Positions 2,400-44,595 of a stretch of DNA of 64,000 bases are shown in pieces. Numbering within the stretch: the stretch's first letter is position 1; each line of letters begins with the position of its first letter. The notes under the pieces were generated by a model. That model saw only the letters and a program-made list of their open reading frames with translations. It ran no database searches and was not told the DNA's origin. This DNA is from Candidatus Omnitrophota bacterium. GTDB lineage: Bacteria > Omnitrophota > Omnitrophia > Omnitrophales > JACQQS01. The translations under genes were made by a program, and so were the position numbers. The stretch is from contig JACQQS010000052.1 in the NCBI GenBank assembly GCA_016206925.1, positions 208 through 64,207 on the forward strand, written 5' to 3'.

Positions 2400-2645
2400 C
2401 CAGTAGCCAGGGGCCAGTAGCCAGGCAAGTTGAGAAGTAATCAACATGCCAAGTGGATTAAAGAAGATATTGCCCCTGATGTGATATTAATGCTCAAGGA
2501 GTGAGAGGATAGCCATCAGCATTCTTGGTATGATGGCGTGATAATTGGGAATTTGACGATTAAGGGTTTTGTTGGTTTTCTTTATTTTGTTTCTTTTTTC
2601 CCGATTATTTCCCCCTTGCCCCTGGCTACTTGCTCGTGGCTACTT
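2395..2645. repeat. hairpin-armed intercistronic cassette A (heptad array AGTAGCC x4 plus complementary array 185 nt downstream)
   Basis: Left arm at 2395-2429: AGTAGCC AGTAGCC AGGGGCC AGTAGCC AGGCAAG. Right arm at 2615-2645: CTTGCCCCTGGCTACTTGCTCGTGGCTACTT. 2416-2425 pairs perfectly with 2621-2630. Confidence 0.7.
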
Positions 2646-2666
2646 CTAACCTAAGGAGGCCTTTAT

Positions 2667-10100: not shown

Positions 10101-11743
10101 AACTGCCGGGACACAAGGTGAGCCAGGAAATCGGCCGTGTGCGTTACACGACGCCCGGCGTTCAACTGATTTCCCCCGCGCCTCATCATGATATTTATTC
10201 CATTGAGGATTTGGCCCAGCTCATTTTTGATTTGAAAAACGGCAACGACCAGGCCAACATCAATGTGAAACTGGTAGCTGAAGTCGGCGTCGGCACCATT
10301 GCAGCCGGTGTGTCCAAAGGCCACGCGGAACTGGTGCTCATCAGCGGTGATACAGGCGGAACAGGGGCGTCACCGCAGACATCGATAAAACATGCGGGAC
10401 TTCCGTGGGAACTCGGCGTTGCCGAAACGCATCAGACACTTGTTTTAAACGATCTGCGCGGAAGAATAATCGTTCAGACGGATGGACAGATTAAGACCGG
10501 CCGCGATGTTGCCATGGCCGTGCTTCTCGGCGCAGAACAATGGGGTGTGGCCACCGGTTCGCTGATTGCTTCGGGTTGTATCATGATGCGCAAATGCCAT
10601 CTGAATACCTGTCCGGTCGGCGTTGCCACGCAGGATCCGGAGCTCAGAAAAAAGTTTTCGGGCAAACCCGATTACGTGGTTAATTTATTTTTCTTTATCG
10701 CTGAAGAACTTCGCGAAATCATGGCCAGGCTCGGTTTTCGCACCGTGAACGAAATGATCGGGCGCGTGGACAAGCTGGAAGTGAAAAAAGCGATCGATCA
10801 TTGGAAAGCCAAAGGACTTGATTTCAGCAAGATTTTGCATAAGCCCGATGTGCCGCCGCATATTGCCACGCACTGCGTCCAGAAGCAGGACCATGGCTTG
10901 TCGAAGGCGATCGACCACGAATTGGTTAAGGATTGCGCGAAGGCCATCGAGCGGAAGGAAAAGGTTCGTTTTGAACGTCCCATTCGAAACGCTAACCGCG
11001 CCGTGGGCGCCATTCTTTCAAGCCGGATTTCCCGCAAATATGGTTACGAAGGATTGCCGCAGGATACGATTCATATCAAATTCTCCGGCTCGGCGGGGCA
11101 GAGTTTTGGCTGCTGGCTTGCGCCGGGCATCACGCTTGAGCTGGAAGGCGATGCGAACGATTATTTGGGCAAAGGCCTCTCCGGCGGGAAACTCATCGCG
11201 TATCCGCCCAGGAATGCAAGTTATGTCCCCGAAGAAAATATCATCATCGGAAATGTTTGCTTCTATGGCGCCACGCGCGGCGAGGCTTACATACGGGGCA
11301 TGGCCGGCGAGCGGTTTTGTGTGCGTAATAGCGGCGTGCATGCCGTTGTCGAAGCGGTCGGCGATCATGGCTGCGAATACATGACGGGCGGATACGTTGT
11401 CGTGCTCGGGCCCACGGGACGGAATTTTGCGGCGGGCATGAGCGGTGGTATCGCGTACGTTCTTGATGAGAAAGGGAATTTCCCGAAGCTTTGCAATCAG
11501 GCCATGGTTGATCTGGAGAAGCCTGATGAAAAGGATATCGAGCGTATTGCCGGAATGATCGGGAAGCACATCGAATACACGCAAAGCAAGCTGGCTGCTG
11601 AAATTTTAAAACGCTGGGGCGATCTTGCGTCGAAATTTGTGAAAGTTTATCCGAAAGATTACAAGAGAGCGCTTACGGATCGCGCTAAGCAGGACGGTGA
11701 AGTTCAGCTGGCCAGCGCCGCCGTATTATCGAAAAGTGCATAA
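7163..11743 (+). CDS. gltB: glutamate synthase large subunit
   Basis: 1526 aa. Ntn-amidotransferase catalytic Cys context ([10 protein letters not shown]). FMN/Fe-S central domain (GEGGEDP..., [16 protein letters not shown]). GXGXG C-terminal domain. Confidence 0.95.
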
Positions 11744-11757
11744 GTATTCAAATGGAA

Positions 11758-11827
11758 AAATTCCAAATCCTAAGCACCAAATTCTAAACAAAATGCAAAA
11801 TCAGAAAATTCTAAACAATGAAATCAT
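11758..11827. repeat. cassette B left arm: about 10 A-rich heptads (AAATTCC AAATCCT AAGCACC AAATTCT ...)
   Basis: The 7-nt register was read directly. 11765-11773 AAATCCTAA is complementary to 12317-12325. The arm contains the ATG (11793) of the cargo gene. Confidence 0.65.
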
Positions 11828-12206
11828 ACCAGAGAAACTTTCAAGAGAGGTTCGTAAACAGGCCAAATACGACTTGGAAGACAGAACCCTTGCTTTTGCC
11901 GGCAAAGTCAGAGAATTTATAAAAATATTGCCAAGATCGACAGCTAATCTGGAAGACACTAGACAATTGATACGGTCTTCGGGTTCCGTTGGGGCGAACT
12001 ATATCGAGGCAAATGAATCACTCAGTAAAAAGGATTTTGTGCTACGCATTAAGATTTGTAAGAAAGAAGCAAAAGAAAGTCGATATTGGTTACGTCTCTT
12101 GGAAATGGATGGAAGATCAGAGGTAACCCGGTTTCGCGAAGACCTCATCGATGAAGTTACGCAACTAACGCGGATCTTTGCTTCGATTTTGACCAAGTGC
12201 GAGTGA
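11793..12206 (+). CDS. four-helix-bundle protein (23S rRNA intervening-sequence protein / Avd-like family)
   Basis: 137 aa from the internal ATG of track ORF 11697-12206. Motifs DLEDRTLAFAGKVREFIKILP, IRSSGSVGANYIEANESLSKKDFVLRIKICKKEAKESRYWLRLL. It looks AT-richer than its neighbours. Confidence 0.8.
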   Translation: MQNQKILNNEIIPEKLSREVRKQAKYDLEDRTLAFAGKVREFIKILPRSTANLEDTRQLIRSSGSVGANYIEANESLSKKDFVLRIKICKKEAKESRYWLRLLEMDGRSEVTRFREDLIDEVTQLTRIFASILTKCE

Positions 12207-12253
12207 GTTGAGCACGCTTTTATTTTCCGTGTTTAGTACGGATTTTGGTTCGA

Positions 12254-12337
12254 GTTTATTTGCGGTTGTGTATTCTTAAAGTTTATTTCGTTTGTTTGTG
12301 ATTTGGAATTTGGAATTTAGGATTTTGTGAGGGTTAG
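12254..12337. repeat. cassette B right arm: about 12 T/G-rich heptads including TTGGAAT TTGGAAT TTAGGAT
   Basis: The 7-nt register was read directly. It is complementary to the left arm, giving about 35 bp of imperfect duplex if G-U pairs are allowed. It ends 3 nt before the gltD ATG. Confidence 0.65.
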
Positions 12338-14633: not shown

Positions 14634-15224
14634 ATGACTACAATGCCGTTTTACCCCTTCCACTTGACCAAGTCTCCCCTTAGGAAAAGGCTCTTGGCAT
14701 ACTTTTTCACGAATCCCGAGGCGCGTCTTTACTTAAGAGAAATCGCCGTCCAGCTTGACGTGGACCCCACCAACCTATCCCGTGAATTAAGAAAGCTTGA
14801 GCAAGAAGGTGTGTTTGTTTCGGAGAGAAACGGCCTTCAAAAGTATTTCTCACTCAATAAAAATTATGCGCTCTACGAAGAACTTCGATCAATGGTATTT
14901 AAAACAGTAGGTGTTCAAGGCGCCCTTACACGTCTTTTGCGGGACATTCAAGGAATTCATCGCGCTTTTATTTATGGATCATTTGCGAAAAACAGTGAGC
15001 GGGCGGGATCGGATGTCGACCTTTGTCTTATTATCGATAAGAAATATTTTAGAGAAGACCACCTCCTTGAGAAACTGCATAAGCTTGAACAGAAACTCGG
15101 CCGCGAGATCAACTATTCATTTTTTTCGGTGCAAGAGTGGGAATCAAAAATACGTTCTAAAGATAGTTTTGTTCTGGGACTCATGAAGGGCAAACGTATC
15201 GAGCTTATCCATGAAAAAGATTGA
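14634..15224 (+). CDS. winged-helix plus minimal nucleotidyltransferase (MNT) protein, antitoxin-type partner of HEPN
   Basis: 196 aa. ArsR-like wHTH (LREIAVQLDVDPTNLSRELRKLEQEGV) and NTase motif IYGSFAKNSERAGSDVDLCLI. It overlaps the HEPN ORF by 14 nt. Confidence 0.75.
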   Translation: MTTMPFYPFHLTKSPLRKRLLAYFFTNPEARLYLREIAVQLDVDPTNLSRELRKLEQEGVFVSERNGLQKYFSLNKNYALYEELRSMVFKTVGVQGALTRLLRDIQGIHRAFIYGSFAKNSERAGSDVDLCLIIDKKYFREDHLLEKLHKLEQKLGREINYSFFSVQEWESKIRSKDSFVLGLMKGKRIELIHEKD

Positions 15225-15674
15225 TTTAAGCGACCTTATCCGTGAAGGGCAAATTCAAGAAGAGCCCAGCATCGGTTGGGATCAGGTAGAACAGCTGATC
15301 AGGCGGGCATTTGAAGATCTCAAATCAGCGGATAGAAATATGCCGTTTGACGAACCCGGAGCCATGGATTTCATTTACAAAGCGATGTTTCATGCAGCGA
15401 ACGCTTTGCTCCGCTCCTACGGATTTAGACCCGGCGCTACGCGACAACATCAGGGCGTGATTACCGCCGTCAGCGGATTTTAGGACCGGAGTACAAGGCT
15501 CTAATCCTTAAGTTTGACAAATTGCGCAAGCGACGAAATCAGTTCGAATATCAGGGAATTTTTGAAATGGGCCGGGAAGAATTACAGGATTCGATCGAAC
15601 AAGCCAAGAAGCTTGTCGTTGCCATTCGCTCAGCCCTTGAAAAATCCAATCCCCAGAAGCATTTTGACTGGTAG
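15211..15674 (+). pseudogene. HEPN-domain gene interrupted by a frameshift
   Basis: Frame 1 (15211-15483) ends ...YKAMFHAANALLRSYGFRPGATRQHQGVITAVSGF*. Frame 3 (open from 15429) continues RILGPEYKALILKFDKLRKRRNQFEYQG...HFDW* to 15674. Together they form one HEPN domain. Confidence 0.6.
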
Positions 15675-16684: not shown

Positions 16685-18601
16685 CTAAGCAGTTGCTTTT
16701 CTAAGGCGGAGGTGGCCGAGTTCGATGCCGCGCTCGGTGCCTAAGTCGCGGAAATGCCAGGAAAGTTTGGCTTCCTTCTTCTGATCGGCGTCATGAATGG
16801 CGGGCGTAGCGGCAATTTGAAGCAGATTTTCCGGCACGATGCCGAATGCGGCCCAGGACAGGGCGGCTTCGATGCGGTAACCGCCGGCGGTTAGTTTCAT
16901 GGCAAGCTTTGTGGTTTCATTCAACTCAATTTCCTTCTCTTCGCCCCAGTTGTAGAGCCGCGGGCGTTTTGTCTTGGGATCAAAGCTGAACCCGAATTGC
17001 GGGTCGCGCGGCGATTTCCAGCGGAACCCGTCACCGTCAAGATCCATGAAAAGCTCAAGCAAATCATCTTTGTAGCTGTAGCGGACCGTCCGCTTGGCCA
17101 CGATTTGATCGTCATGAACGGCAGCCGCAATAAAAAGATGGGTTTCGTCCCATAGAAACGAAACATTGGCGCTCAGGTCATCCCGGTCTCGAACCACGCC
17201 GTAGTCAATGTGTTTAGCATCCGCCAGCATAATTTGTTCGGTGATTCCCCATTCGTTCAGGTCTCCGTCGACAGAAATGGCCTGCTCACCCCGGTGCGTA
17301 ACCGTGTATTCCGGCGCTTTTGAAAGGGCGGGCTCCATTGTGCCTTCGACAAATCCGGCAAGCGCCAGGCCGCGTTTTACGTTTTCATTTTGCATGAAAA
17401 GTCTCCAGATCAGCCCGGTGCGGTAATTTTCAATCATGGAAAGAAGCGCGCCGGCATCGATGCCGATAACCGATTTGGAGCGCCAGTCGCGGTCGAGATT
17501 CATGGAATCACTGAATCCGTAGCGGCCCCACATTTTATCCTTCAAATTCGAATAGACCTTTCGCATCTGCGCGATCGAAAGCTCCGGCTCGAAAACGATT
17601 GATGCTCCCGAAACCAGGGGCGAAATCGTCCCATCGTGCGAATTCCTGTCGCTTGCGCCGTAGGCCTTGTATCCGGCCGGGCCGTCGTAGGCACTCAGGC
17701 CCCAATATCCTTCGGCATACGTTTTAAATTCAGCGGCGTTGTTTTCGGAAAATTTCTTATTGGCCCGTGTGGCACGCCTTGAATTTTCAAAATAATCGGC
17801 AACGCCGTCATTTTTATTCCGCAAGTCCAGCCAGACCTGCGGATATTGATGGATGAATAGCGGACCGGCAAACATGAAAGTTTCGCCTTCCCGCTCCGCA
17901 ACCGGTTTCTTGACCTTGCTCCAGCTGTCATTCGGCACGGGATACGTTGGCGAACCGGTCGCCAGAATATATAGGAGGAGGCCCTCGGCAAATCCGGACC
18001 AGTAGGAAGGCAGAAATCCGCTTTCCTTCTGCCAGCCCATGCAGAGATAAGTCGTGCGGTTCCGCATCCAGTTAAAATCAACGCGCTCGTAGATGGATTT
18101 TGCAATTTCCGCAGCTTTCGTTCCGGGGAAATATTCGGCGGCTGTAAGCATCCCCGCCAGGAGCAGGGCCGTATCGATTGAAGAAAGTTCGGACTCGTAC
18201 ACATTTTTACCTTCGCGGCCTTCGAGAAAATGATAGAAGAAACCGTGCTGAGTCTCCGCGCGTTCGGAGAAAAATCGCAGCGCCGTAAGAATCCGCTCAT
18301 AGGCTTCTTTATTGCTGATCCAGCCCCGCTCGGAACCGATGATGAACGCGTTTATGCCGAATCCGGTGGCGGCAATGCTCGTTCGCAATTCGCGGAGCGG
18401 CTGGCCGTGATTGGCCGAGCTGTCATTGATCAAGCCTGTTTCGGGATGGTACTCGTTTAAAAAATAGCGGAACGTCTGCTTCTCGACCATATCCAGAAAT
18501 GCATCCGAATTTTCGGTTGCTTTAGGATCTTCTCCTGCGGCGAATACCGGTGAATTCAGGAGAAGGGAAGCGATTAGAATGCTAAGGGTTATCGTTCTCA
18601 T
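16685..18601 (-). CDS. secreted PF10091/COG5368 'putative glucoamylase' (GH144-like) glycosidase with a C-terminal CBM9-like domain
   Basis: 638 aa with a signal peptide (MRTITLSILIASLLLNSPVFAAG). Catalytic-domain motifs are shared with the 30390-34133 paralog: SIAATGF, GFFYHFL, ELSSIDTALLLAG, IENYRTGLIW. The C-terminus (ISVDGDLNEW...LWDETHLFIAAAVHDD) is CBM9-like. Confidence 0.7.
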   Translation of the reverse strand: MRTITLSILIASLLLNSPVFAAGEDPKATENSDAFLDMVEKQTFRYFLNEYHPETGLINDSSANHGQPLRELRTSIAATGFGINAFIIGSERGWISNKEAYERILTALRFFSERAETQHGFFYHFLEGREGKNVYESELSSIDTALLLAGMLTAAEYFPGTKAAEIAKSIYERVDFNWMRNRTTYLCMGWQKESGFLPSYWSGFAEGLLLYILATGSPTYPVPNDSWSKVKKPVAEREGETFMFAGPLFIHQYPQVWLDLRNKNDGVADYFENSRRATRANKKFSENNAAEFKTYAEGYWGLSAYDGPAGYKAYGASDRNSHDGTISPLVSGASIVFEPELSIAQMRKVYSNLKDKMWGRYGFSDSMNLDRDWRSKSVIGIDAGALLSMIENYRTGLIWRLFMQNENVKRGLALAGFVEGTMEPALSKAPEYTVTHRGEQAISVDGDLNEWGITEQIMLADAKHIDYGVVRDRDDLSANVSFLWDETHLFIAAAVHDDQIVAKRTVRYSYKDDLLELFMDLDGDGFRWKSPRDPQFGFSFDPKTKRPRLYNWGEEKEIELNETTKLAMKLTAGGYRIEAALSWAAFGIVPENLLQIAATPAIHDADQKKEAKLSWHFRDLGTERGIELGHLRLRKATA

Positions 18602-18784
18602 ACCGCTTGATTAAGCGCTGGTCGGGCGCCGCTTGTTCGAGCGGCGGTCGGCCGCTTAGTCCGGCGGTACCGAACGGTCGGTTCGGCGCTTGGTCAGGCG
18701 GTACCGTGCGATCGGCACGGTAATGCTCTTAAAGTATGCCATAGGGTGTTAATACGTCCAATGGGGGTGGGTGAGTTGTCATTA

Positions 18785-24237: not shown

Positions 24238-24294
24238 CCAAAATGTTCCTTAAATTCCGCGTTCGACGGTTACCTTCAGCGCCACTCGATACAA

Positions 24295-24431
24295 AAGGCT
24301 TCAACCGATTGTCCGCGCACCGCTCCAGAATTACCGTCAAAGGTAATTCTGTCGCTCGACTCAGCGCTACTCCGCCATCCGTGGCTTCGTAACGCGCTTC
24401 GACGTGCGCTAAAACAATCGGTTGAAGCCTT
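24295..24431. repeat. 137-bp element bounded by perfect 18-bp inverted repeats (AAGGCTTCAACCGATTGT / ACAATCGGTTGAAGCCTT)
   Basis: The inverted repeats are at 24295-24312 and 24414-24431. An inner GCGCAC/GTGCGC pair and a perfect 9-bp hairpin AGAATTACC-GTCAAA-GGTAATTCT (24328-24351) lie between them. The right repeat encodes the last residues of LeuD. Confidence 0.75.
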
Positions 24432-25080
24432 GGGGTTCCAGTGTGTATTTCAATTGAGGATTATGGTTGGATTCGAAGGAAGAAATAGCCGCTTCTTCCT
24501 TTAGGGTGATGCCAATGTCGTCAAGGCCGTGGAGGAGCCGGGTTTTTAAGGGCGCATCGATATCGAAATGAAAAGACGTTTCCTCGCCGGAATGAATTGT
24601 AAGGCGCTGGTGCTCGAGATCGACCGTTGCCTCGAGATTCGGAAAGCGATCGACCCATTCGAAGATTTTCTGGACTTCCGGTTCGGAAAGCTCGATGGCG
24701 AGAAAACCGTTCTTGCCGCAGTTGGAACGGAAAATATCGGCAAAAGCAGGAACGAGCATGCTGCCGCGCTCTTGTCGCGGCGCGATCACGGCGTGAAAGC
24801 CGTATTGCTGAATGGCCCACACGGCGTGCTCGCGGCTTGAACCGCAGCCAAAGTTATTGCGTGTAACGAGAATCGTCGCGCCCTTAAACCGCGGCGCGTT
24901 TAACTCAAATGCCGGATTCGGTTTTCCGCCCGGCAAATAGCGCCAGTCGAAAAACAGGTTCTCGCCGAAGCCGGTGCGTTTGATCGATTTTAGAAACTGC
25001 TTCGGAATGATCTGGTCGGTATCGACATTTGACCGGTCAAGTGTGGCGATAAGTCCGCGGTGCGATTTAAACGGTTGCAT
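24409..25080 (-). CDS. leuD: 3-isopropylmalate dehydratase small subunit
   Basis: 223 aa from the internal ATG ([31 protein letters not shown]) and the motif GCGSSREHA. The start overlaps the leuC stop by 1 nt. The C-terminal tail runs into the inverted-repeat element. Confidence 0.9.
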   Translation of the reverse strand: MQPFKSHRGLIATLDRSNVDTDQIIPKQFLKSIKRTGFGENLFFDWRYLPGGKPNPAFELNAPRFKGATILVTRNNFGCGSSREHAVWAIQQYGFHAVIAPRQERGSMLVPAFADIFRSNCGKNGFLAIELSEPEVQKIFEWVDRFPNLEATVDLEHQRLTIHSGEETSFHFDIDAPLKTRLLHGLDDIGITLKEEAAISSFESNHNPQLKYTLEPQGFNRLF

Positions 25081-26480: not shown

Positions 26481-26586
26481 AGGCCGCATAGTATATCGGC
26501 AGGCCGCGCGGGTTGGCAAGGCAAGCTTTCTCGACGAACTTTCTAAACTGTTTGGCCGTCACGCGTTGATGATATAATGCATAAAA

Positions 26587-26615
26587 AGGTAACGGGAAAC
26601 AGGTAACGGGAAAAC
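26587..26615 (+). repeat. tandem direct repeat AGGTAACGGGAAAC x2 in the msrB leader
   Basis: 26587-26600 and 26601-26615 (the second copy has one extra A). It ends 4 nt before the GTG start. An extended -10-like TGATATAAT lies about 20 nt upstream. Confidence 0.6.
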
Positions 26616-27012: not shown

Positions 27013-27085
27013 AAACGATCATTATCCAAACTTTACATTACCTCCGTTTTCATGTAGATTAACATTTCCCTAAAGCTGATTTGAG

Positions 27086-27787
27086 ATGCAAGAAACCGCA
27101 AAAGAAAAAATTTTGGCCGAAGTTGCCGAAAGTCCCCTAGCACCCTCCAAAGTTTTCCAAACTTTAGAGAACGAGCGCATCATAGCGGTTGTGCGTTCCT
27201 CTATTTATGAAAATGTGGAGGAGCTTACCAACGCTGTCATGGCAGGCGGCATACGCTGCGTTTTGATTTCGAATACCGTGCCGCAGCGGTTTCGCTTTAT
27301 CGAAACTATTTCCAAACAATATCCGGATGTGCTTGTCGGCTGTGCGCATGTTGCTACCGGAGAACAGGCCCAGAAGGCGATCGAAGCCGGTGCGAAAGTG
27401 ATTTCAAGCCCTTATCTGAACAAGGATATCGTCAATGTCTGCAAAAATAGCGGCGCGCTCGTTATGCAAGGCGCGGCCACGCCGAGTGAGATTATGGAAG
27501 CCGTGCAGTTCGACGCCGATATCGTTCAGCTATTTCCGATCAACCACCTGGGCGGTCCCAATTTTATCCGGACGATAAAAGATCATCTGCCTTCCGTAAA
27601 ATTTGCCGCCTGCGGTGGCGTGGGTTTGGACGATGTGGTAGATTTTATAAAGGCCGGCGCTACGGCTGTTATGGTAGATGATGCGCTGACGGACCGCGGC
27701 TTGATTCGAGAAGATAACTGGAAAGAAATTACCGAACGCGCCAAACTGTTTACACAAAAAATTGCCACGCTCAAAGCCTCCAAGTAA
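27086..27787 (+). CDS. KDPG/KHG aldolase (Eda)-fold protein lacking the canonical catalytic residues
   Basis: 233 aa. It aligns by eye to E. coli Eda (AGGIRCV..., EAGAKVISSP, CGGVG). The Schiff-base Lys context FKFFPAE reads VQLFPIN, and the LEVTLRT segment reads VLISNTV. Confidence 0.65.
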   Translation: MQETAKEKILAEVAESPLAPSKVFQTLENERIIAVVRSSIYENVEELTNAVMAGGIRCVLISNTVPQRFRFIETISKQYPDVLVGCAHVATGEQAQKAIEAGAKVISSPYLNKDIVNVCKNSGALVMQGAATPSEIMEAVQFDADIVQLFPINHLGGPNFIRTIKDHLPSVKFAACGGVGLDDVVDFIKAGATAVMVDDALTDRGLIREDNWKEITERAKLFTQKIATLKASK

Positions 27788-29918
27788 TCTGCCGAACCGC
27801 CCCCCTCAATGGCTTACCTTTGGTCCGACCGTTTGTTCCGAATTGGAGCTCTGCCTGGAGAAAGAATGGTTTTTGGGAAATGGTCTCGGGGGGTACACTG
27901 CGGGAACGATTGTTGGCTGCCCGACGAGAAGCACGCACGGGCTTCTGATTGCCGCCACCCGGCCGCCGGACGGTTTGATTTCCCTCATCTCTGCGTTTGA
28001 GGAAACTTTTTTTGTCCTGGACCAACCGTATCCGCTGTCCACTTTCTATTTTCGGGATACGATCTATCCGAAAGGTTACGAGTACCTCAGGCGGTTTTCC
28101 TTGAACCCCTTTCCGACTTTTACATTTGAAGTAGAGGATTTTCGTCTGGAGAAAACCGTTTACCTCAGGCGCGGGCAGAATACCGTTGTCGTCAACTATC
28201 GGCTGGTCTCCGGCGAGGAGGAACTTGTCCGGCTCGAAATAAAACCGCTTGTCACATGCCGCCCCGTCGGCGAAGTCAGAAAAAGTGCAAAAGCCATCGA
28301 AGGCGGACTGACCACATCAAAAGGTCAGGTGTGTTACAGGAGCTCGAAGCTCCTGCCGCCGATTTATTTTGCACACCAGGCAGCGATTGTGGACAAATCC
28401 GGAGACGGGTACGGCGAAATTGTCTATTTGCGTGATCAGGAGGAGGGGAAATCCTCAACCGAGCATCTGTATTACCCGTGCTCTTTCATTTATTCCTTTA
28501 TGGCCCGCGACGAAGCAATGCTTGCCGCTTCCACACAGCCCATCCAGCTGCCGGAATCGCCGTCGCTTTGGATGAATGCCGAAAGAGAATCGGTGCTTGC
28601 TGGGCGGAAGCGTTTTTTCCAGATGGCTTTGAAGGGAAGGCCGGGCGTGGCTGCGGAAGGCGCATCGGCGCCCCCACCGGATTCGGAAGAGGGTATTTCT
28701 CCGCTGACCGACGTTGATGAATTGCAGCATATGGTTTCGCAATCCGAACATTTTTTGGTGAAACGCGGGCATGACGGGGCAAGCTTCCTAAGAGGCTATT
28801 TCGACGGCGGAGACGGTGCGTGGTCATCCATGATCGCATTGCCGGGATTGCTTCTGGTCCCGCGAAGATATGACGAGGCAAAAAATCTTCTGCTTTTCTA
28901 CGCTTCTCTCATGGATAAGGGTTTTCTGCCCAGTTCGTTCCGCGCTTTGGAGGGACGCGCCTCGGACGGGGAATCTCTTTATGAGCAAATAGATGCCGCG
29001 CTTTGGTTTGTCGAAGCCGTATATCTTTATTGCCAGGAGAGTGAGGATTTCGAAACTGTTGAGAAAAAGCTGTTCCCCGTACTGCGCCGCTGCGTAAAAC
29101 ATTACGAGCGGGGGACGCATTTTGGCGTACGTGCCTCCGGCGACGGATTGCTTGAACAGGAGGAATCGAGAAAGGCGATTACCTGGATGAATGCGTATGC
29201 GGGTACGGTGCCCGTGACGCCGCGGTGGGGAAAAGCGGTTGAAGTGAACGCGCTTTGGTACAGCACACTTCGGGTCGTTGAGTATTTTGCGATTAAATTC
29301 CGGGACACACAAACGGCCAAAGCCATGGACCGCCTCGCGCTTAAAGTTTATTCTTCATTCAATTCGGCCTTTTGGAATGACAAGAAAGGGATCGTATACG
29401 ATTGTATTCAAAAGGAAAGGAAGGATCCTTCTATCCGCCCGAACCAGATCATCGCTTTAAGTTTGAGCTTTCCGGTGCTTCAGAAAAAGAGCTGGCCGGT
29501 TGTTCTTCAGACGGTGACGCAGGAACTCTTTACGCCGTTCGGATTAAGAACGCTTTCGAAACGCAGCAGGTTTTATCGGGGCCGGTACTATGGCGATCGG
29601 ATTAAACGAGCGCAGGCCGAACACCAGGGGACCGTTTGGGCCTGGCTCATCGGTCCTTATGTCCGTGCTTATCTTAGGACATACGGAAATACCCAGCCGG
29701 TGCGGGAGAAACTTTTAAGACTCTTTGAACCTTTCTTTAACCAACTGAGCCATTTCGGGCTGAATTCAATCTCATCCGTTTATGACGGGAATGCGCCCCA
29801 TACGCCGCGCGGGCTCGTGGGCGATGCGCTTGCGGCCGGCGAAGTCGTTCGCTGCTATGAAGAGCTTATCTCCGAAGGCCCCAAGAAACAAACGCTTGAA
29901 AAGTTTGAATTGAAATGA
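27762..29918 (+). CDS. glycogen-debranching-enzyme-type protein (GDE_N_bis plus amylo-alpha-1,6-glucosidase (a/a)6 barrel)
   Basis: 718 aa. EWFLGNGLGGYTAGTIVGCPTRSTHGLLIAA, TWMNAY, IRPNQIIALSL, FGLRTLS and GTVWAWLIGPY. It overlaps the Eda-like gene by 26 nt. Confidence 0.8.
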   Translation: MPRSKPPSNLPNRPPQWLTFGPTVCSELELCLEKEWFLGNGLGGYTAGTIVGCPTRSTHGLLIAATRPPDGLISLISAFEETFFVLDQPYPLSTFYFRDTIYPKGYEYLRRFSLNPFPTFTFEVEDFRLEKTVYLRRGQNTVVVNYRLVSGEEELVRLEIKPLVTCRPVGEVRKSAKAIEGGLTTSKGQVCYRSSKLLPPIYFAHQAAIVDKSGDGYGEIVYLRDQEEGKSSTEHLYYPCSFIYSFMARDEAMLAASTQPIQLPESPSLWMNAERESVLAGRKRFFQMALKGRPGVAAEGASAPPPDSEEGISPLTDVDELQHMVSQSEHFLVKRGHDGASFLRGYFDGGDGAWSSMIALPGLLLVPRRYDEAKNLLLFYASLMDKGFLPSSFRALEGRASDGESLYEQIDAALWFVEAVYLYCQESEDFETVEKKLFPVLRRCVKHYERGTHFGVRASGDGLLEQEESRKAITWMNAYAGTVPVTPRWGKAVEVNALWYSTLRVVEYFAIKFRDTQTAKAMDRLALKVYSSFNSAFWNDKKGIVYDCIQKERKDPSIRPNQIIALSLSFPVLQKKSWPVVLQTVTQELFTPFGLRTLSKRSRFYRGRYYGDRIKRAQAEHQGTVWAWLIGPYVRAYLRTYGNTQPVREKLLRLFEPFFNQLSHFGLNSISSVYDGNAPHTPRGLVGDALAAGEVVRCYEELISEGPKKQTLEKFELK

Positions 29919-38175: not shown

Positions 38176-38231
38176 GAGAGCTATCAGCTATCAGCTGTCA
38201 GCTTTCAGCTAACAGCTCAGACCAAGGAGCA
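38176..38231. repeat. cassette D: the whole ilvB-ilvN spacer is an in-phase heptad array (AGAGAGC TATCAGC TATCAGC TGTCAGC TTTCAGC TAACAGC TCAGACC AAGGAGC)
   Basis: Eight 7-nt units were read directly. The unit core CAGCT is self-complementary, so the two halves can pair. The last unit is the ilvN SD. Confidence 0.7.
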
Positions 38232-38234
38232 CAC

Positions 38235-38771
38235 ATGAAACACACGATTGCATGTTTGGTGGAAAATCATTCGGGCGTGCTGGCCCGGATTTCGGGGCTT
38301 TTCTCAGCGCGCGGTTTTAACATCGACAGCCTGGCCGTCGGAACAACGACGGATCCGAGCGTTTCGCGCATGACTATTGTCACGCGCGGCGATGAAAAGG
38401 TGCTCGAGCAAATCATAAAACAACTCAATAAAGTCGTTGACGTCATCAAAGTGGCGGATATGACTACGGAAGAAACCATTGACCGCGAACTCATTCTGGT
38501 CAAGGTGAATACGACGACCAGCACGCGAAGCGACATTATGCAGATCACGAATACGTTCCGCGCCAAAATCGTGGATGTCAGTCCGAACTGGATGACGCTT
38601 GAGTCGACAGGAACGACAAGCAAGGTAGACGCCATGCTGGAGCTGCTTCAGCCCTACGGCATTCGGGAAATCGCGCGTACCGGCCTTATTTCCGTGGCGC
38701 GCAGGACCGATTTAAGCAGCACCGGCAAGAAGGGACAGTCAAAAAAGATAGCCAAAGAAGAAATAGTGTAG
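38235..38771 (+). CDS. ilvN: acetolactate synthase small (regulatory) subunit
   Basis: 178 aa. ACT domain HTIACLVENHSGVLARISGLFSARGFNIDSLAVG and the C-terminal ALS_ss_C region. Confidence 0.9.
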   Translation: MKHTIACLVENHSGVLARISGLFSARGFNIDSLAVGTTTDPSVSRMTIVTRGDEKVLEQIIKQLNKVVDVIKVADMTTEETIDRELILVKVNTTTSTRSDIMQITNTFRAKIVDVSPNWMTLESTGTTSKVDAMLELLQPYGIREIARTGLISVARRTDLSSTGKKGQSKKIAKEEIV

Positions 38772-38773
38772 CC

Positions 38774-38808
38774 GGGGCGCCGCGCGGTCGGCGCAGTGCC
38801 CCGCCTAC
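38774..38808. repeat. GC-rich hairpin plus GCCCCGCCTAC motif between ilvN and ilvC
   Basis: GGGGCGCCG...CGGCGCAGTGCCCC followed by GCCTAC. The 12-mer TGCCCCGCCTAC recurs at 42393-42404 in the same position relative to a start codon. Confidence 0.5.
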
Positions 38809-38820
38809 TAAGGGGGTTAC

Positions 38821-39849
38821 ATGATTAAAATCTACTACGACAAAGATGCGGACGTAAACGTTTTAAAAGGCAAACGAACGGCCATCATCGGTTACGGAAT
38901 TCAGGGGCGCGGTCAGGGCTTGAATTTACGGGACAGCGGCGTCGACGTCATCATTTCGCAGCGGCCCGGCGGGAAAAATTACGATATCGCCGTCGAAGAC
39001 GGATGGAAGCCCGTGCTGGCGGAAGAAGCCGCAAAGCAGGCCGATATCATTCAGATTTTGGCCCAGGACCATCTTCAAGCGGAAATTTATGAGAAGAGCG
39101 TGAAGCCGCATCTCAGGCCGGGCAAGGCGCTTCTCTTTTCTCACGGGTTCAATATTCATTTTGGCTACATTAAACCGCCGAAAGACATCGATGTTTACAT
39201 GGTGGCGCCCAAAGGCCCGGGGAGTTTGGTGCGGAATCAATATGTGGAAGGCAAGGGGGTCCCCTGCCTGGTCGCTATTCATCAAAACGCGACGGGAAAC
39301 GCGCTGAAACTGGCATTGGCACACGCCAAGGCCATCGGCGGAACGCGCGCTGGAGTTATTGAAACGAATTTTCGCGAAGAGACCGAAACCGATCTTTTCG
39401 GCGAACAGGTCGTGCTTTGCGGCGGATTGAGCGAACTCATCCGCGCGGGGTTTGAGACGCTGGTTGAAGCGGGATATGCTCCGGAAATGGCTTATTTCGA
39501 ATGCCTGCATGAGGTGAAACTGATTACGGACGGCGTTTTTGAGTCCGGCATAAGCGGCATGCACCGGCGCGTTTCGGATACGGCGGAATACGGCGATTAC
39601 ACGCGCGGCAAGCGCATCATTAATAAGGAAACCAGGCAGGAAATGAAAAAGATTCTGGAAGAAATCCGTTCCGGAAAATTTGCCAAGGAATGGATGGAAG
39701 AAAATAAGACGGGCCGGAGAAATTACAATAAGTGCCGCGAGGAATGCGACAAACACCCGATTGAAAAGGTGGGTGCCGAGCTCCGCAAAATGATGGGATG
39801 GGTCATCGAAGCTTCCAAGAATGTGGTCGGAGCGGGAATGAAGCGATGA
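38821..39849 (+). CDS. ilvC: ketol-acid reductoisomerase
   Basis: 342 aa. [26 protein letters not shown] and [12 protein letters not shown]. Confidence 0.95.
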
Positions 39850-41408
39850 AGGTTAAGGGTAGAAAGATTTACATATTTGATACGACGCTTCGAGACGGGG
39901 AGCAGTCGCCGGGGTGTAGTCTGACGCCGGTCGAGAAGCTGGAAGTTGCCGAACAGCTCGAGCGGTTAAACGTAGATATCATTGAAGCAGGTTTTCCCGC
40001 AGCATCTCCGGGCGAAGTAGAGGCCATTAAGAAACTTTCGCGTAGAGTTAAAAAGCCCGTCATATGTGCGTTGGCCCGCTGCATACGGAAAGACATCGAT
40101 TTTGTCCGTGAGGCATTGAAATACACGAAGCGCCCGCGATGCCATGTTTTTCTGGCCACTTCCAAGATTCACCGTGAATTTAAACTCCGCAAGCCCAAGG
40201 AAGAACTTGTCCAGATCGCCTCTGAACATGTGGCCTACGCGAAGAAATATTTTTTCGACGTGGAATTTTCGCCCGAAGACGCAGCGCGCACGGAGTATGA
40301 TTTTCTGATTCAGGTTGTGCGGGCGGCCATCGATGCCGGAGCAACCACCATTAACATTCCGGACACCGTTGGCTATGCGATCCCGAGCGAGTTCGGCGAA
40401 TTGATCCGCCAGCTGGTCGAATCCATCCCCGAGTTTAATCCGGAAAATCCGAAAGTAAATTTAAGCGTGCATTGCCACAATGATCTCGGCCTGGCCGTGG
40501 CTAATTCCGTCGCTGCGGTTAAGAACGGGGCCAATCAGGTGGAGTGCACGGTGAACGGCATCGGCGAGCGCGCGGGAAACGCTTCCATGGAAGAAATTGT
40601 GATGATCATTGATACGCGGGCTGACTTTATGGATTGTTACACCGACATCAACCTGGCCGAAATCACGAAATCCTCCCAGGCTGTTTCACGTCTGACCGGA
40701 ATGCTGGTGCAGGCAAACAAGGCGATTGTCGGGAAAAACGCGTTTGCGCATGAATCCGGCATCCATCAGGACGGCGTATTGAAAAAGCGCATCACGTATG
40801 AAATCATCGATCCGGCCAGAATCGGCCTTAAGGGCAGCAATATCGTTTTGGGCAAGCATTCAGGCCGGCATGCATTTCGTGAGCGCCTCACGAAGCTCGG
40901 GTATCAATTGAGCGATGCGCAGGTGGATCATGCTTTTGCGCATTTTAAGCAGATTGCCGATCAGAAGAAGGATGTTTATGACGAAGATCTGCATGCTATC
41001 GTTGCCGACGAACTGGCCCGCGCCGCTCAAATGTGGCATCTGGTCTCTTTTGAGGCCGCGGTTCATGCCGGCGGGACGGCAAAAGCGACGGTCACGCTCA
41101 GAAAGAGCGGAAAGAATTTTTCCGCTTCCGCCACCGGCGACGGTCCGGTCGATGCCAGCTGCCGGGCTGTAGAAAAAATTACCAAATGCGAAGGCCGCAT
41201 AAGAAAATTTTCCATCCAGGCCATCACGGCGGGCAAGGATGCGATGGGTGAGGCAACGGTCACGGTCCGCGCGAAGGGTCTCGAAGTGACCGGCCGCGGT
41301 TCGAGCACCGATATCATTGAGGCCAGCATAAAGGCCTACCTTTACGCCATGAATCGCATTCTGGCGATGACGGCCAAGCCCCGCAGGCAGCAGCTGAGCC
41401 AGGTGTGA
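39846..41408 (+). CDS. leuA: 2-isopropylmalate synthase
   Basis: 520 aa from [23 protein letters not shown]. Motifs [13 protein letters not shown] and the C-terminal LeuA dimerisation domain. ATGA overlap with ilvC. Confidence 0.95.
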
Positions 41409-42376
41409 GCAGGCTGGTCGCCGAAACTCCAGAGAAAAATATCTTGGGAACCGTACGAAAGCGTCATTGGGCCGCTGATTACAAGCTTTACGCCATTTTC
41501 GGGTATCCTCTCAAGCATACCTTTTCTCCCGTCATGCACAACAAGGCGTTTAAGGCGCTGGGTTTGGACAGTTACTACATTGATATTCCTATCAGGCCCG
41601 AGCGGTTTAAGCGCATCCGGCGCAATTTAAGAAACGCGCCGCTGGACGGATTCAATCTTACTGTACCGCACAAGGAACTGATTGTAAAAGTGCTCGACTC
41701 GGTTGATCGTGAAGCCGGACAGATCGGCGCGGTCAACACGGTGCTCGTCAAGAGAACGAATCAAATAAATCAGACGATCGGCAGGGGGGCCCGGCTGATC
41801 GGCTACAACACGGATACGTATGGTTTCCGGGAAGCATTGCGCCGCGAAGCACGGTTCAACGTGCACGGCAAATCCGTTTTGGTTCTGGGCGCGGGCGGCG
41901 CAGCACGCGCTTGCGTGCAAGCATTAATAAAAGAAGGCGTCCGGCAAATCATCATCGCCAATAGAACCGTCTCAAAAGCGCGCCGGCTGATCAGCGATTT
42001 TTCGCGTTTTGCGCGGAAGCGCGGCGCAAGACTGCTTCTTTCGCAGTCGGCGACGAAGGGCTGCCATTTGAACATATCCGGCGTGGATTTGGTTGTGAAT
42101 TCAACTTCGCTTGGACTTAAGAAAAGCGACCCTTTGCCTATTAAGCTTGGACTATTGCCAAAGAGGAAGTTATTAATCTTTGACTTAATTTATAATCCGT
42201 CCCGGACGAAATTATTACGCGAGGCATCGAAGAGAGGCTATCGGACGATGAACGGACTTCCGATGCTTCTCTATCAAGGCGCAAAGGCTTTTGAGATTTG
42301 GACGGGAAAACAAGCGCCTATTCATGTCATGAGGAAAGCATTAAACAATGTAGCCAGAGCGTCTCGCTCCGGTTAA
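41405..42376 (+). CDS. aroE: shikimate dehydrogenase
   Basis: 323 aa with a GTG start overlapping the leuA stop. FGYPLKHTFSPVMHNKAF, GFNLTVPHK, GAVNTV and VLGAGGAARA. Confidence 0.85.
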   Translation: MSRLVAETPEKNILGTVRKRHWAADYKLYAIFGYPLKHTFSPVMHNKAFKALGLDSYYIDIPIRPERFKRIRRNLRNAPLDGFNLTVPHKELIVKVLDSVDREAGQIGAVNTVLVKRTNQINQTIGRGARLIGYNTDTYGFREALRREARFNVHGKSVLVLGAGGAARACVQALIKEGVRQIIIANRTVSKARRLISDFSRFARKRGARLLLSQSATKGCHLNISGVDLVVNSTSLGLKKSDPLPIKLGLLPKRKLLIFDLIYNPSRTKLLREASKRGYRTMNGLPMLLYQGAKAFEIWTGKQAPIHVMRKALNNVARASRSG

Positions 42377-42408: not shown

Positions 42409-43215
42409 ATGGCAGACATTCTGGGTTTACCTCAATTTTTTTGGATCACGTTGATTTTTGCATTGGGCGCCTGCATCGGCAGTTTTCTAAACGTGTGCAT
42501 ATTCCGCTGGCCGCAGGAAGAGCTTTCTATCGTTAGGCCAAGATCGTTTTGTCCGAGCTGTAAGGAAATGATTGCGTGGTACGACAATATTCCGGTGGTA
42601 AGTTTCATTTTACTGCGCGGGCGGTGCCGGCGCTGTGCGTGGAGGATCTCGCCGCATTATCCGCTTGTAGAATTATTGTATGCGCTGATTTTTGTCTGGT
42701 TTTTCACGACACACGGTTTTACCGCAAGGTTTGCGTTTAATTCCGTTTTCATGGCGCTTCTCCTGATCGCGACGATCACGGATTTTCAAACGCGCATCAT
42801 CCCGGACGAGGTGAGCTTTTACGGAATTTTGTTCGCAATGTTGATGAGTTTTATTTTTCCGGGCTTGCAGAATGAAACAGGACATAAATTGGCTCTGGCC
42901 GATGCCACGCTCGGCGTACTTTTAGGCGGCGGGCTTTTGTATATTATCGCGGTTGTGGGCGATGCCATGTTTAAGCGGGAAAGCATGGGCGGCGGCGATA
43001 TAAAATTGCTTGCGATGATCGGCGCATTCCTGGGTTACCGTTTCGTTTTTCCGACGATGTTTTTCGCATCGCTGCTTGGCTCGGCTATCGGGATTTTTTT
43101 GAAGTTGACGCGAAAGGAAGAAACCATTGCTTTCGGACCGTATTTGGCAATGGGCGCAGTTGTATTGCTGCTTTGGGGCGATTGGTTGCTACAGAGGTTC
43201 TTTCCATTTCTTTGA
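42409..43215 (+). CDS. pilD: prepilin peptidase / N-methyltransferase (A24 family)
   Basis: 268 aa from MADILGLPQFFW. Motifs GSFLNVCIFRWP and the Cys box CPSCKEMIAWYDNIPVVSF...GRCRRC. Catalytic Asp contexts ITDFQTRIIPD and GGGDIKLLAMIG. Confidence 0.85.
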   Translation: MADILGLPQFFWITLIFALGACIGSFLNVCIFRWPQEELSIVRPRSFCPSCKEMIAWYDNIPVVSFILLRGRCRRCAWRISPHYPLVELLYALIFVWFFTTHGFTARFAFNSVFMALLLIATITDFQTRIIPDEVSFYGILFAMLMSFIFPGLQNETGHKLALADATLGVLLGGGLLYIIAVVGDAMFKRESMGGGDIKLLAMIGAFLGYRFVFPTMFFASLLGSAIGIFLKLTRKEETIAFGPYLAMGAVVLLLWGDWLLQRFFPFL

Positions 43216-43462
43216 CGGAAGACAGTTGAGAGACGATAGACGAAGGAAGAGAGACGATGAAAAGAGCAAGAAAAACTCCGAAAACAAAAGCCTAGGATAA
43301 TGAAAATGGTATCGCATAATTGCAAAATGAAGAGTGGTGAGCAAAAATTAAATCTTTCTTTTGTACACCTTTTTGCTTTTTCTATTCTTTCCCATTATTT
43401 CCTCTCTCGCCCTTCGTCTCTCGTCCATCGTCCTTCGTCCGTCTTCCTTTCTCTGGTTCTCG
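43214..43462. repeat. hairpin-armed intercistronic cassette C (purine-rich GA-heptads on the left, complementary TCGTC-heptads on the right)
   Basis: Left arm at 43214-43276: GACGGAA GACAGTT GAGAGAC GATAGAC GAAGGAA GAGAGAC GATGAAA... Right arm at 43400-43462: TCCTCTC TCGCCCT TCGTCTC TCGTCCA TCGTCCT TCGTCCG TCTTCCT... GGAAGAC (43217-43223) pairs with GTCTTCC (43441-43447), and about 26 of the next 35 positions pair if G-U is allowed. Confidence 0.7.
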
Positions 43463-43473
43463 GAGGTTCGTAG

Positions 43474-44595
43474 ATGTTTAACTACATCACTAGTGGTGAA
43501 TCACACGGACGGTTTCTCTCGGCCATCGTGGAAGGCGTACCGAGCGGAATTGAAATGGATCTTCCCTTTATTAATCATGAGCTGGCGCGCCGGCAGGGCG
43601 GGTACGGCCGGGGCGGGCGCATGAAAATTGAAAAGGATGAAGTCCAAATCACCGCGGGTGTTTTAAAGGGCCGGACGACGGGCGCGCCCATCGGGCTTCT
43701 TCTTGAGAATAAGGACTTTAAGATCGAACAGATGCCCGAAATTTCCCGTCCGCGGCCGGGTCATGCGGATTTGGTTGGCCATTTGAAATATGGCGAGGGC
43801 ATTCGCGCTGTTCTCGAACGCGCAAGCGCTCGTGAGACTACGATGCGCGTTGCGGCCGGTGCGACTGCCAAGCTTTTGCTTCGTGAATTTAATATTGCGG
43901 CTGCAAGTCATGTTCTCGAAATCGGCGGAATTTCGGCGGATGTTCGGGGGATATCTTTTGATGAAATTGTTAAAAACGCACCCCAGTCGGAGGTGTACTG
44001 CGTTTCTGCTTCCGCATCGGAAAAAATGAAAGCGAAAATCGACGAAGCCCGGAAAAACGGAGACACGCTCGGAGGACTTCTTGAGGTCCGTGTGAAAGGC
44101 TGTCCGCCCGGCCTGGGTTCATACGTTCATTACGGGAGAAAATTGGATGCGTTGATTGCCGCCGCGATGCTTAGCATTCAAGCCGTGAAGGGCGTGACGT
44201 TTGGAATCGGCGCCGATTTCGCAAAATTGCCCGGCTCCAAAACGCACGATGAGATTGGTTACAGCAAAGATCGCGGGTATTACCGTCTCACCAATCACTT
44301 GGGCGGGATCGAAGGCGGCATGACGACGGGAGAAGAAATTGTGACTCAGGTTATTATGAAACCCATTTCCACATTGAGGACACCGCTCAAGTCGGTGGAC
44401 ATCAAAACCAAGAAAGTGGAAGAGGCCGCATACGAGCGGTCGGATATCTGTACCGTTCCGGCGCTCAGTGTGATCTGTGAAAACGTGATCATGATTGAAA
44501 TCTCGAAAGTTTTTCTTGAAAAATTCGGCGGCGACTCTCTCCGCGAAATCCAACGCAACTACCAAAGCTACCTGAAGCAACTTCAAGAGTCGTAA
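43474..44595 (+). CDS. aroC: chorismate synthase
   Basis: 373 aa. GESHGRFLSAIVEGVPSG, RRQGGYGRGGRM and RPGHADL. Confidence 0.95.
   Translation: MFNYITSGESHGRFLSAIVEGVPSGIEMDLPFINHELARRQGGYGRGGRMKIEKDEVQITAGVLKGRTTGAPIGLLLENKDFKIEQMPEISRPRPGHADLVGHLKYGEGIRAVLERASARETTMRVAAGATAKLLLREFNIAAASHVLEIGGISADVRGISFDEIVKNAPQSEVYCVSASASEKMKAKIDEARKNGDTLGGLLEVRVKGCPPGLGSYVHYGRKLDALIAAAMLSIQAVKGVTFGIGADFAKLPGSKTHDEIGYSKDRGYYRLTNHLGGIEGGMTTGEEIVTQVIMKPISTLRTPLKSVDIKTKKVEEAAYERSDICTVPALSVICENVIMIEISKVFLEKFGGDSLREIQRNYQSYLKQLQES

Follow-up and report, generated by a model that had tools for sequence, protein, structure and literature searches.

What fills the 258 nt between the prepilin peptidase gene pilD and the chorismate synthase gene aroC in a Candidatus Omnitrophota bacterium? 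In the 64,000-nt stretch of contig JACQQS010000052.1 analysed here (hereafter the window), these genes belong to a run in the order aroE (41405–42376), pilD, aroC, aroK and aroB. The gap between the pilD stop codon and the aroC Shine-Dalgarno (SD) sequence is filled exactly by an element that we call cassette C, in which two arms of degenerate heptads, purine-rich on the left and pyrimidine-rich on the right, enclose a 123-nt core. Cassette C is a lineage-specific insertion. It is best filed as an intervening sequence (IVS)-type element that lies between cistrons, without an open reading frame (ORF), in Omnitrophota, and we see about an even chance that it represents the ORF-less part of a class of selfish stem-loop insertions, IVS-like and heptad-armed, that are tolerated between cistrons. 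It is read as a member of this class because its arms, its position and the U-rich 3' part of its core match those of the class.

Architecture of cassette C and its distribution among relatives

The initial annotation of this locus, made from the sequence alone, had delimited the two arms and the core and placed them between a stop codon and the next SD sequence, all of which matches the sequence (Table 1). The cassette begins GACGGAAGACAG, and its last right heptad merges into the GGAGG of the aroC SD sequence. The annotated 7-nt register was supported statistically: lag-7 identity reached 0.54 for the left-hand heptads (P=0.0045) and 0.61 for the right-hand ones (P<0.0005), further identity peaks stood at lags 14 and 21, and Tandem Repeats Finder (TRF) detected repeats with periods of 7, 14 and 21 in each arm. 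An inverted repeat search recovered 59-nt arms that are 71% complementary and a 26-nt stretch at 85%. In the register that sets 43217–43257 against 43407–43447, 29 Watson-Crick and 4 G-U pairs form over 41 positions, in agreement with the earlier count of about 26 pairs in 35 positions, and the long-range pairing proposed for the arms also appeared in the Boltzmann ensemble, where ~40 nucleotides of the 63-nt left arm have partners on the right side. This pairing is spread over several registers, each with a probability of only ~0.4. Within the same ensemble, the aroC SD sequence is held in a local hairpin of 43450–43455 with 43461–43466 (P=0.93). A second, independent assembly of this organism (Logan) has exactly the same sequence throughout the cassette C region, which rules out an assembly artefact.

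For the comparison with relatives, which the initial annotation had suggested, pilD-aroC junctions were retrieved through AroC homologues; scans of genome and metagenome contigs for AroC yielded distant relatives almost exclusively and added L008, L089 and L090 only. The spacer measures 23 nt in relatives with 83% AroC identity (L002, L003 and L004, and also L089 and L090), 39 nt at 77% identity (L088) and 16 nt at 75% identity (L006 and L007). In L005, with 74% AroC identity, it measures 304 nt and holds a two-arm heptad cassette of its own, built from AGAAGAC/GACAGAA heptads and their complement, with Watson-Crick pairs at 34 of 39 positions in one register. L005 carries further two-arm cassettes at its aroE-pilD and aroC-aroK junctions.

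A second junction of the window, between a carbamoyltransferase gene and an ACT gene, holds a related element, cassette A, and varies likewise: it spans 267 nt in the window, 16 nt in an 85% relative (L169) and 410 nt in L170. L005 and L170 derive from one sample, and the L170 cassette has GACAGAA heptads on both sides. The stop codon of the upstream gene in L170 lies within the heptad array, making the protein 3 aa longer, and the cassette (L170 2497–2727) contains an ORF of 76 aa marked by a hydrophobic stretch and by an acidic tail. This ORF is an orphan, with itself as the only match among 5.8 billion proteins and no Pfam match above threshold. In the L005/L170 genome, the right ends of the cassettes at two different junctions are identical over 22 nt, which suggests copying between loci. 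By TRF, heptad arrays were confined to the window and the L005/L170 genome, with none in L002, L006, L088 or L169. By pairwise AroC identity the window falls with L002, and L005 falls with L088, so the two cassette-bearing genomes are not sisters; on these identities, the cassettes would have been either gained twice or cleanly lost three times.

Candidatus Taenariivivens baikalensis (L008), also of the Omnitrophota, has an unrelated hairpin of ~100 nt with 29-nt arms exactly between pilD and aroC (L008 9850–9947) and, separately, an inverted repeat with AT-rich heptad arms at L008 7994–8067.

Sibling cassettes and four-helix-bundle genes

Tandem repeats of period 7, 14 or 21 occupy only five spacers in the 64 kb by TRF, all of them at gene boundaries. 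The initial annotation had proposed a family of cassettes, and this held, with A, B and C in the window and further members in relatives. The arms of A and C are significantly periodic, as is the right arm of B; periodicity is weaker in the left arm of B. Also as annotated, the arms of A, B and C have no sequence in common, the repeat unit differing at each locus of the window. The homology noted between the cores of A and C came down to a motif of ~15 nt, TTTCCC(G)ATTATTTCC, common to both (2597–2612 in A), and the remainder of the two cores does not align. The same motif occurs as CATTATTTCC in one relative's cassette (L005 3482–3491). The reverse complement of ATTATTTCC resembles an SD sequence with an ATG, and the minus-strand peptides of 10–15 aa that it would start were not conserved and were rejected.

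Cassette B, at the gltB/gltD junction, links these elements to rRNA intervening sequences. In order, the region reads: the gltB stop codon (11741–11743), A-rich heptads at 11757–11817 (AAATTCC AAATCCT AAGCACC AAATTCT ...), an ORF, a T-rich tract, 3.7 copies of ATTTGGA, an SD sequence and the gltD ATG at 12341. An ORF at 11697–12206 hit PF05635, '23S rRNA-intervening sequence protein', and the ORF within the cassette (11793–12206) encodes a full-length TIGR02436 four-helix-bundle protein (67 bits against a cut-off of 24) that matches PDB 2rld. The heptad-armed cassettes of the window thus include one with the signature gene of rRNA intervening sequences, which the initial annotation had not recognised. 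The heptad arm supplies the first ~20 codons of this ORF, and these precede the part that is conserved in the family.

The arms of cassette B have counterparts around homologous genes in other phyla. A tblastn search with the cassette B protein against PLSDB plasmids gave 27 records, most from Nostocales and others from Bacteroidota, Chlorohelix and Treponema. Twelve plasmid loci (L171–L182), covering Cyanobacteriota, Bacteroidota, Chloroflexota and Spirochaetota, were scored by the best inverted match between the two gene flanks against 200 shuffles. Inverted heptad arrays lay on the flanks of 11 of the 12 homologues, with no shuffle reaching the observed score; the flanks in Bernardetia were weak (11/200 shuffles), and cassette B itself gave 1/200 under the same test. 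Each plasmid copy uses its own heptad type: AATTCAA in Nostoc flagelliforme, where 31/31 positions are complementary, CAATTCG in N. punctiforme, AAGTAAA in Anabaena, GAAGAAT in Pseudanabaena, GATTTAC / GATTTGG in Planktothrix, CAGTGAC in Euhalothece, GATTTTA in Gloeocapsa and in the second Chlorohelix copy (L177), ATGAAGG / ATGAATT in the first Chlorohelix copy (L174), GGAAAGN over about 300 nt in Treponema and CAGTNAN in Chondrinema.

As in the window, gene boundaries are the usual setting. Ten of the 12 plasmid genes are co-directional with both annotated neighbours, for example between a resistance-nodulation-division (RND) adaptor and an RND permease, between DrmD and MmeI, or between a helicase and a methylase. 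On one Planktothrix plasmid (L180), complete ORF-less two-arm cassettes stand on both sides of the four-helix-bundle gene, and of the five period-7 loci in 49 kb of Chlorohelix sequence, two form the flanks of such a gene. The four-helix-bundle protein family is very large, since a single-sequence search returned at least 6116 clusters at 50% identity. In the literature searched we found no description of heptad arms around four-helix-bundle genes outside rRNA, which is not proof of novelty.

Two side observations concern these plasmids. The four-helix-bundle genes are often found inside defence or transport operons (for example cas2/cas1, DrmD/MmeI, DUF1156/Swt1-HEPN). On a Chlorohelix plasmid (L183), roughly complementary period-7/period-21 arrays (GAACGAT..., TTCATCC...) at 27085–27130 and 28621–28647, ~1.5 kb apart, both lie within a coding sequence annotated as a single 4.2-kb N-6 DNA methylase that adjoins the four-helix-bundle gene.

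Origin and nature of the insertion

The closest described parallel is the 23S IVS of Coxiella burnetii, described as a selfish element in helix 45 with terminal inverted repeats and an S23p ORF, which carries tandem heptamers, (GACAGAT) x2-3 plus GACAGAA, in strain-variable number, and which RNase III excises in vitro with the 5' cut at the first repeat (PMC4990558). GACAGAA/GACAGAT is also the heptad of the L170 and L005 cassettes. Like cassette C, the 23S IVS of Coxiella burnetii, Leptospira and Salmonella have terminal inverted repeats that pair into a long stem enclosing a dispensable core. They lack a promoter of their own and depend on host transcription, as cassette C probably does; the Coxiella IVS further resembles cassette C in having tandem heptamers in the stem region. 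Their distribution among close relatives is as sporadic as that of the cassettes. Some carry an S23p / four-helix-bundle ORF, as does cassette B, whereas cassette C has none. Cassette C also differs in that long arrays of degenerate heptads make up both of its arms. Its excision by RNase III would be expected by analogy (PMC4990558, PMC12721329). Among cassettes with a TIGR02436/PF05635 gene, a class defined in this analysis and not curated, inverted degenerate heptad arrays and a position at a gene boundary are the rule; cassette C has both and differs in enclosing no gene. Proteins of the PF05635 family are similar to Avd, an accessory protein in diversity-generating retroelements (PMC10053308).

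Other repeat families fit less well. The cyanobacterial short tandemly repeated repetitive (STRR) sequences and the TAACTGA repeats of Beggiatoaceae are intergenic tandem heptamers that typically stand just upstream of a start codon or SD sequence and sometimes overlap the end of the upstream ORF, with only one inverted case reported (PMC4679880). They are direct repeats of one genome-wide heptamer, whereas each locus of the window has its own heptad, with an inverted partner in A, B and C. Repetitive extragenic palindromes (REP) and bacterial interspersed mosaic elements (BIME), enterobacterial repetitive intergenic consensus (ERIC) sequences, Correia elements and miniature inverted-repeat transposable elements (MITEs) are, like the cassettes, imperfect palindromes in transcribed intergenic regions, and some are RNase III substrates or mRNA stabilisers. 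Their consensus and termini are conserved across copies, whereas cassettes A, B and C share architecture and not sequence; MITEs also have target-site duplications, and none was seen for the cassettes when filled and empty sites were compared. Readings as an integron attC site, a retron, a REP with its associated transposase (RAYT) or an inverton were set aside, the defining motifs, genes or orientation variants being absent. Rfam searches of the whole window at gathering thresholds returned no family for cassette C and no rRNA; at E-value thresholds, 43150–43550 gave only generic long-hairpin matches to microRNA precursors.

If cassette C is an IVS-like insertion of this kind, its life cycle can be sketched by analogy. 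It would have no promoter of its own and be co-transcribed with aroE-pilD-aroC-aroK-aroB; a scan for sigma-70 promoters and intrinsic terminators found no consensus in the cassette. The arms would zip in any of several heptad registers into an imperfect duplex of ~45–60 bp, RNase III would cut the stem and the core would be discarded, splitting the operon RNA into a pilD-side and an aroC-side half, both still translatable. Going by the Coxiella and Haemophilus precedents, cassette C is probably transcribed and cut by RNase III. Such an element would persist only where an RNA break is harmless, at rRNA helix tips or in intercistronic gaps, because both halves stay functional there. That a four-helix-bundle protein acts in trans is speculation. 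Separately, manual readings of -35 and -10 boxes near CATTAT and TTGCAA were inconsistent between cassettes and were dropped.

Full-length members of the class carry a four-helix-bundle gene (S23p / TIGR02436, Avd-like), and the classical 23S IVS appear to belong to it. Cassette B and the cross-phylum survey of flanks point to a broader class. We propose tentatively, and with rather more doubt than confidence, that the heptad-armed cassettes form one widespread, undescribed class of selfish intervening sequences at any transcribed site where an RNA break does no harm, whose ORF-less members would be non-autonomous derivatives. The origin, mobility and function of rRNA IVS and of S23p / four-helix-bundle proteins have been open since ~1990, and the purpose of intergenic heptamer repeats is unexplained. 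If cassette C and its siblings are intercistronic IVS-type elements, IVS would no longer be a curiosity of rRNA but a general class of selfish spacers at the RNA level, and heptad arrays would be a recognisable signature for locating them. Annotators would then have an explanation for the spurious small ORFs and odd long spacers found in conserved operons, and the idea would be directly testable by RNase III assays and transcript end mapping. The proposed widespread class would tie together three features long without explanation: the IVS of bacterial rRNA, the TIGR02436 protein family with its very large membership, and the STRR-like heptamer repeats found between genes in cyanobacteria and other phyla.

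Several points weigh against reading cassette C as an IVS-like selfish insertion. First, it lies between two protein-coding cistrons and not in helix 25 or 45 of 23S rRNA, which puts it outside the literal definition of an IVS; we infer transcription through it and RNase III cleavage by analogy, and the window contains no rnc gene. Second, tblastn with the cassette B protein found no remnant of a four-helix-bundle ORF in the cores of A, of C or of the relatives' cassettes; a descent from a gene-carrying element would rest on shared architecture. Third, neither target-site duplications nor conserved termini were seen in the cassettes. Fourth, G-U and A-C mismatch counts show no strand bias and the plus strand folds better in only 4/7 cassettes, so that neither comparison gives a clear sign of selection at the RNA level.

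Lastly, the specific pairing of the arms exceeded that of composition-matched shuffles by only a modest margin. The initial annotation had held that its reading would fail if the pairing were no better than in shuffled sequences of the same composition and if homologous cores were absent elsewhere. Folding of the whole spacer surpassed dinucleotide shuffles (z=-2.7 on the plus strand, -3.7 on the minus strand), but in the stricter control that the initial annotation had asked for, the arms as delimited, each shuffled separately, reached -49.7 against -43.9 +/- 4.4 kcal/mol (z=-1.3; 105/1000 shuffles), which goes some way towards that outcome. With the inner A-rich/U-rich extension added to the arms, the duplex became significant (z=-2.7; 10/1000), and cassette A gave z=-4.2 under separate arm shuffling. 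Much of the pairing potential of cassette C is owed to its purine/pyrimidine composition, because the duplex of the delimited arms is not significant when each arm is shuffled separately. What is non-random in cassette C is the switch in composition, the heptad periodicity and the recurrent architecture.

Among the alternatives, the most probable, though still unlikely, is that cassette C is a neutral by-product, neither mobile nor a functional RNA, of slipped-strand expansion of heptads and template-switch (quasi-palindrome) copying in the spacers of length-tolerant lineages. Arm sequences that differ at every locus, arrays that begin at or within the upstream stop codon and solo heptad arrays (38179–38217 and 26583–26614) are what such a process might leave behind. 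The balanced G-U and A-C mismatches point to complementarity at the DNA level, and the largely compositional pairing of the cassette C arms also speaks for a by-product. A purely local process is harder to reconcile with the same architecture flanking 12/13 of the four-helix-bundle genes examined, in five phyla, with two genomes that are not sisters both having cassettes at the same pair of junctions, or with the inter-locus copying suggested by the shared 22-nt end at two junctions of one relative's genome.

Quite unlikely, in our judgement, is a host cis-regulatory hairpin that sets the pilD/aroC ratio through mRNA 3'-end protection, translational uncoupling or masking of the SD sequence, as REP/BIME and intercistronic stabilisers do. 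The exact fit between stop codon and SD sequence would suit such a role, as would the local sequestration of the aroC SD sequence with a probability of 0.93 and the unrelated ~100-nt hairpin that L008 has at its own pilD-aroC junction. There is also a precedent in the hmw1A 5' untranslated region (5'-UTR) of H. influenzae, where a long, imperfect hairpin has the heptanucleotide repeat (ATCTTTC)n in one arm and a purine-rich sequence in the other, and its cleavage by RNase III alters expression (PMC12721329). Unlike cassette C, the hmw1A hairpin lies in a 5'-UTR, has its pyrimidine arm first and pairs a perfect, phase-variable repeat with a non-repeat G-rich arm; it is moreover a conserved host regulatory element, whereas cassette C is an insertion that varies between relatives. 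The three closest lineages, with spacers of 16–39 nt, have no cassette, and it is therefore not needed to regulate the conserved operon. Neither core nor arms are conserved in sequence, and no Rfam family matches.

That the core encodes a product of its own, a small RNA or the 57-aa ORF at 43300–43473, excised from processing stems, is very improbable. A gene finder did call this ORF in the Logan assembly, and the junction-A cassette of L170 also encloses an ORF, of 76 aa; yet the 57-aa ORF extends across the pyrimidine arm without any Pfam match, the L170 ORF is an orphan that likewise lacks a Pfam match above threshold, and the cassette cores neither align with one another nor match Rfam. 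We give hardly any credence to an inverton or to a MITE moved by a transposase through terminal inverted repeats: inverted repeats do surround a short segment whose presence varies among relatives, but its orientation is the same in two assemblies, the core has no promoter consensus, the arms are not conserved between copies, no target-site duplication was seen, and the only tyrosine recombinase of the window (51587) has a syntenic counterpart in the cassette-less L002 (topoisomerase, recombinase, kdtA/lpxK).

Feature coordinates and other repeats of the window

Table 1. Parts of cassette C and related features, in window coordinates (MFE, minimum free energy fold).
Feature	Coordinates	Strand	Remarks
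pilD (prepilin peptidase A24) stop codon TGA	43213–43215	+	left arm of cassette C starts within the stop codon
Left arm of cassette C, nine degenerate purine-rich heptads	43214–43276	+	GACGGAA GACAGTT GAGAGAC GATAGAC GAAGGAA GAGAGAC GATGAAA AGAGCAA GAAAAAC
A-rich inner part of left arm	43256–43272	+	in the MFE, pairs with the U-rich tract 43370–43399 and lengthens the stem
Loop/core of cassette C	43277–43369	+	AT-rich, small local hairpins only
U-rich tract	43370–43399	+	3' end is TTTCCCATTATTTCC, an end motif common to cassette A
Right arm of cassette C, nine degenerate pyrimidine-rich heptads	43400–43462	+	complementary to the left arm in several registers
Local 6-bp hairpin UCUCUG/CGGAGG	43450–43466	+	sequesters the aroC SD sequence, pair probability 0.93
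aroC (chorismate synthase), downstream cistron	43474–44595	+	ATG at 43474, GGAGG at 43462–43466
Cassette A, carbamoyltransferase/ACT junction	2393–2650	+	GTAGCCA heptads and complement, ~180-nt core
Cassette B, gltB/gltD junction	11752–12330	+	left AAATTCC-type heptads 11757–11817, complementary right ATTTGGA 12299–12328
Four-helix-bundle / 23S rRNA IVS protein gene in cassette B	11793–12206	+	PF05635, E=1e-11
Solo heptad array AGCTATC x5.6, ilvB-ilvN spacer	38179–38217	+	no inverted partner

Several other repeats of the window were recorded. In addition to the solo array of the ilvB-ilvN spacer, the ilvN-ilvC spacer (38771–38821) holds a GC-rich hairpin, GTAGCCGGGGCGC...GCGCAGTGCCCCGCCTAC; in the 83% relative L002 these two spacers measure just 15 nt and 10 nt. 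The array at 26583–26614 consists of 2.3 copies of a 14-nt unit, AAAAAGGTAACGGG, directly upstream of the GTG start of an msrB-like gene, with no inverted partner in the window. Another long inverted repeat, at 24283–24443, has a counterpart at L002 14636–14830, with arms of 30 nt and 47 nt; the loop-proximal AACCGATTGT/ACAATCGGTT is common to both, which marks a conserved hairpin unrelated to the heptad cassettes. At 18595–18720, GC-rich repeats or hairpins of ~26 nt (CCGCTTGATTAAGCGCTGGTCGG...) lie in a row between two minus-strand genes. Lastly, beyond an ORF with a nucleotidyltransferase domain (14634–15673), the sequence as far as 16685 is unannotated and has several small ORFs on both strands; this may be a toxin-antitoxin-like island.

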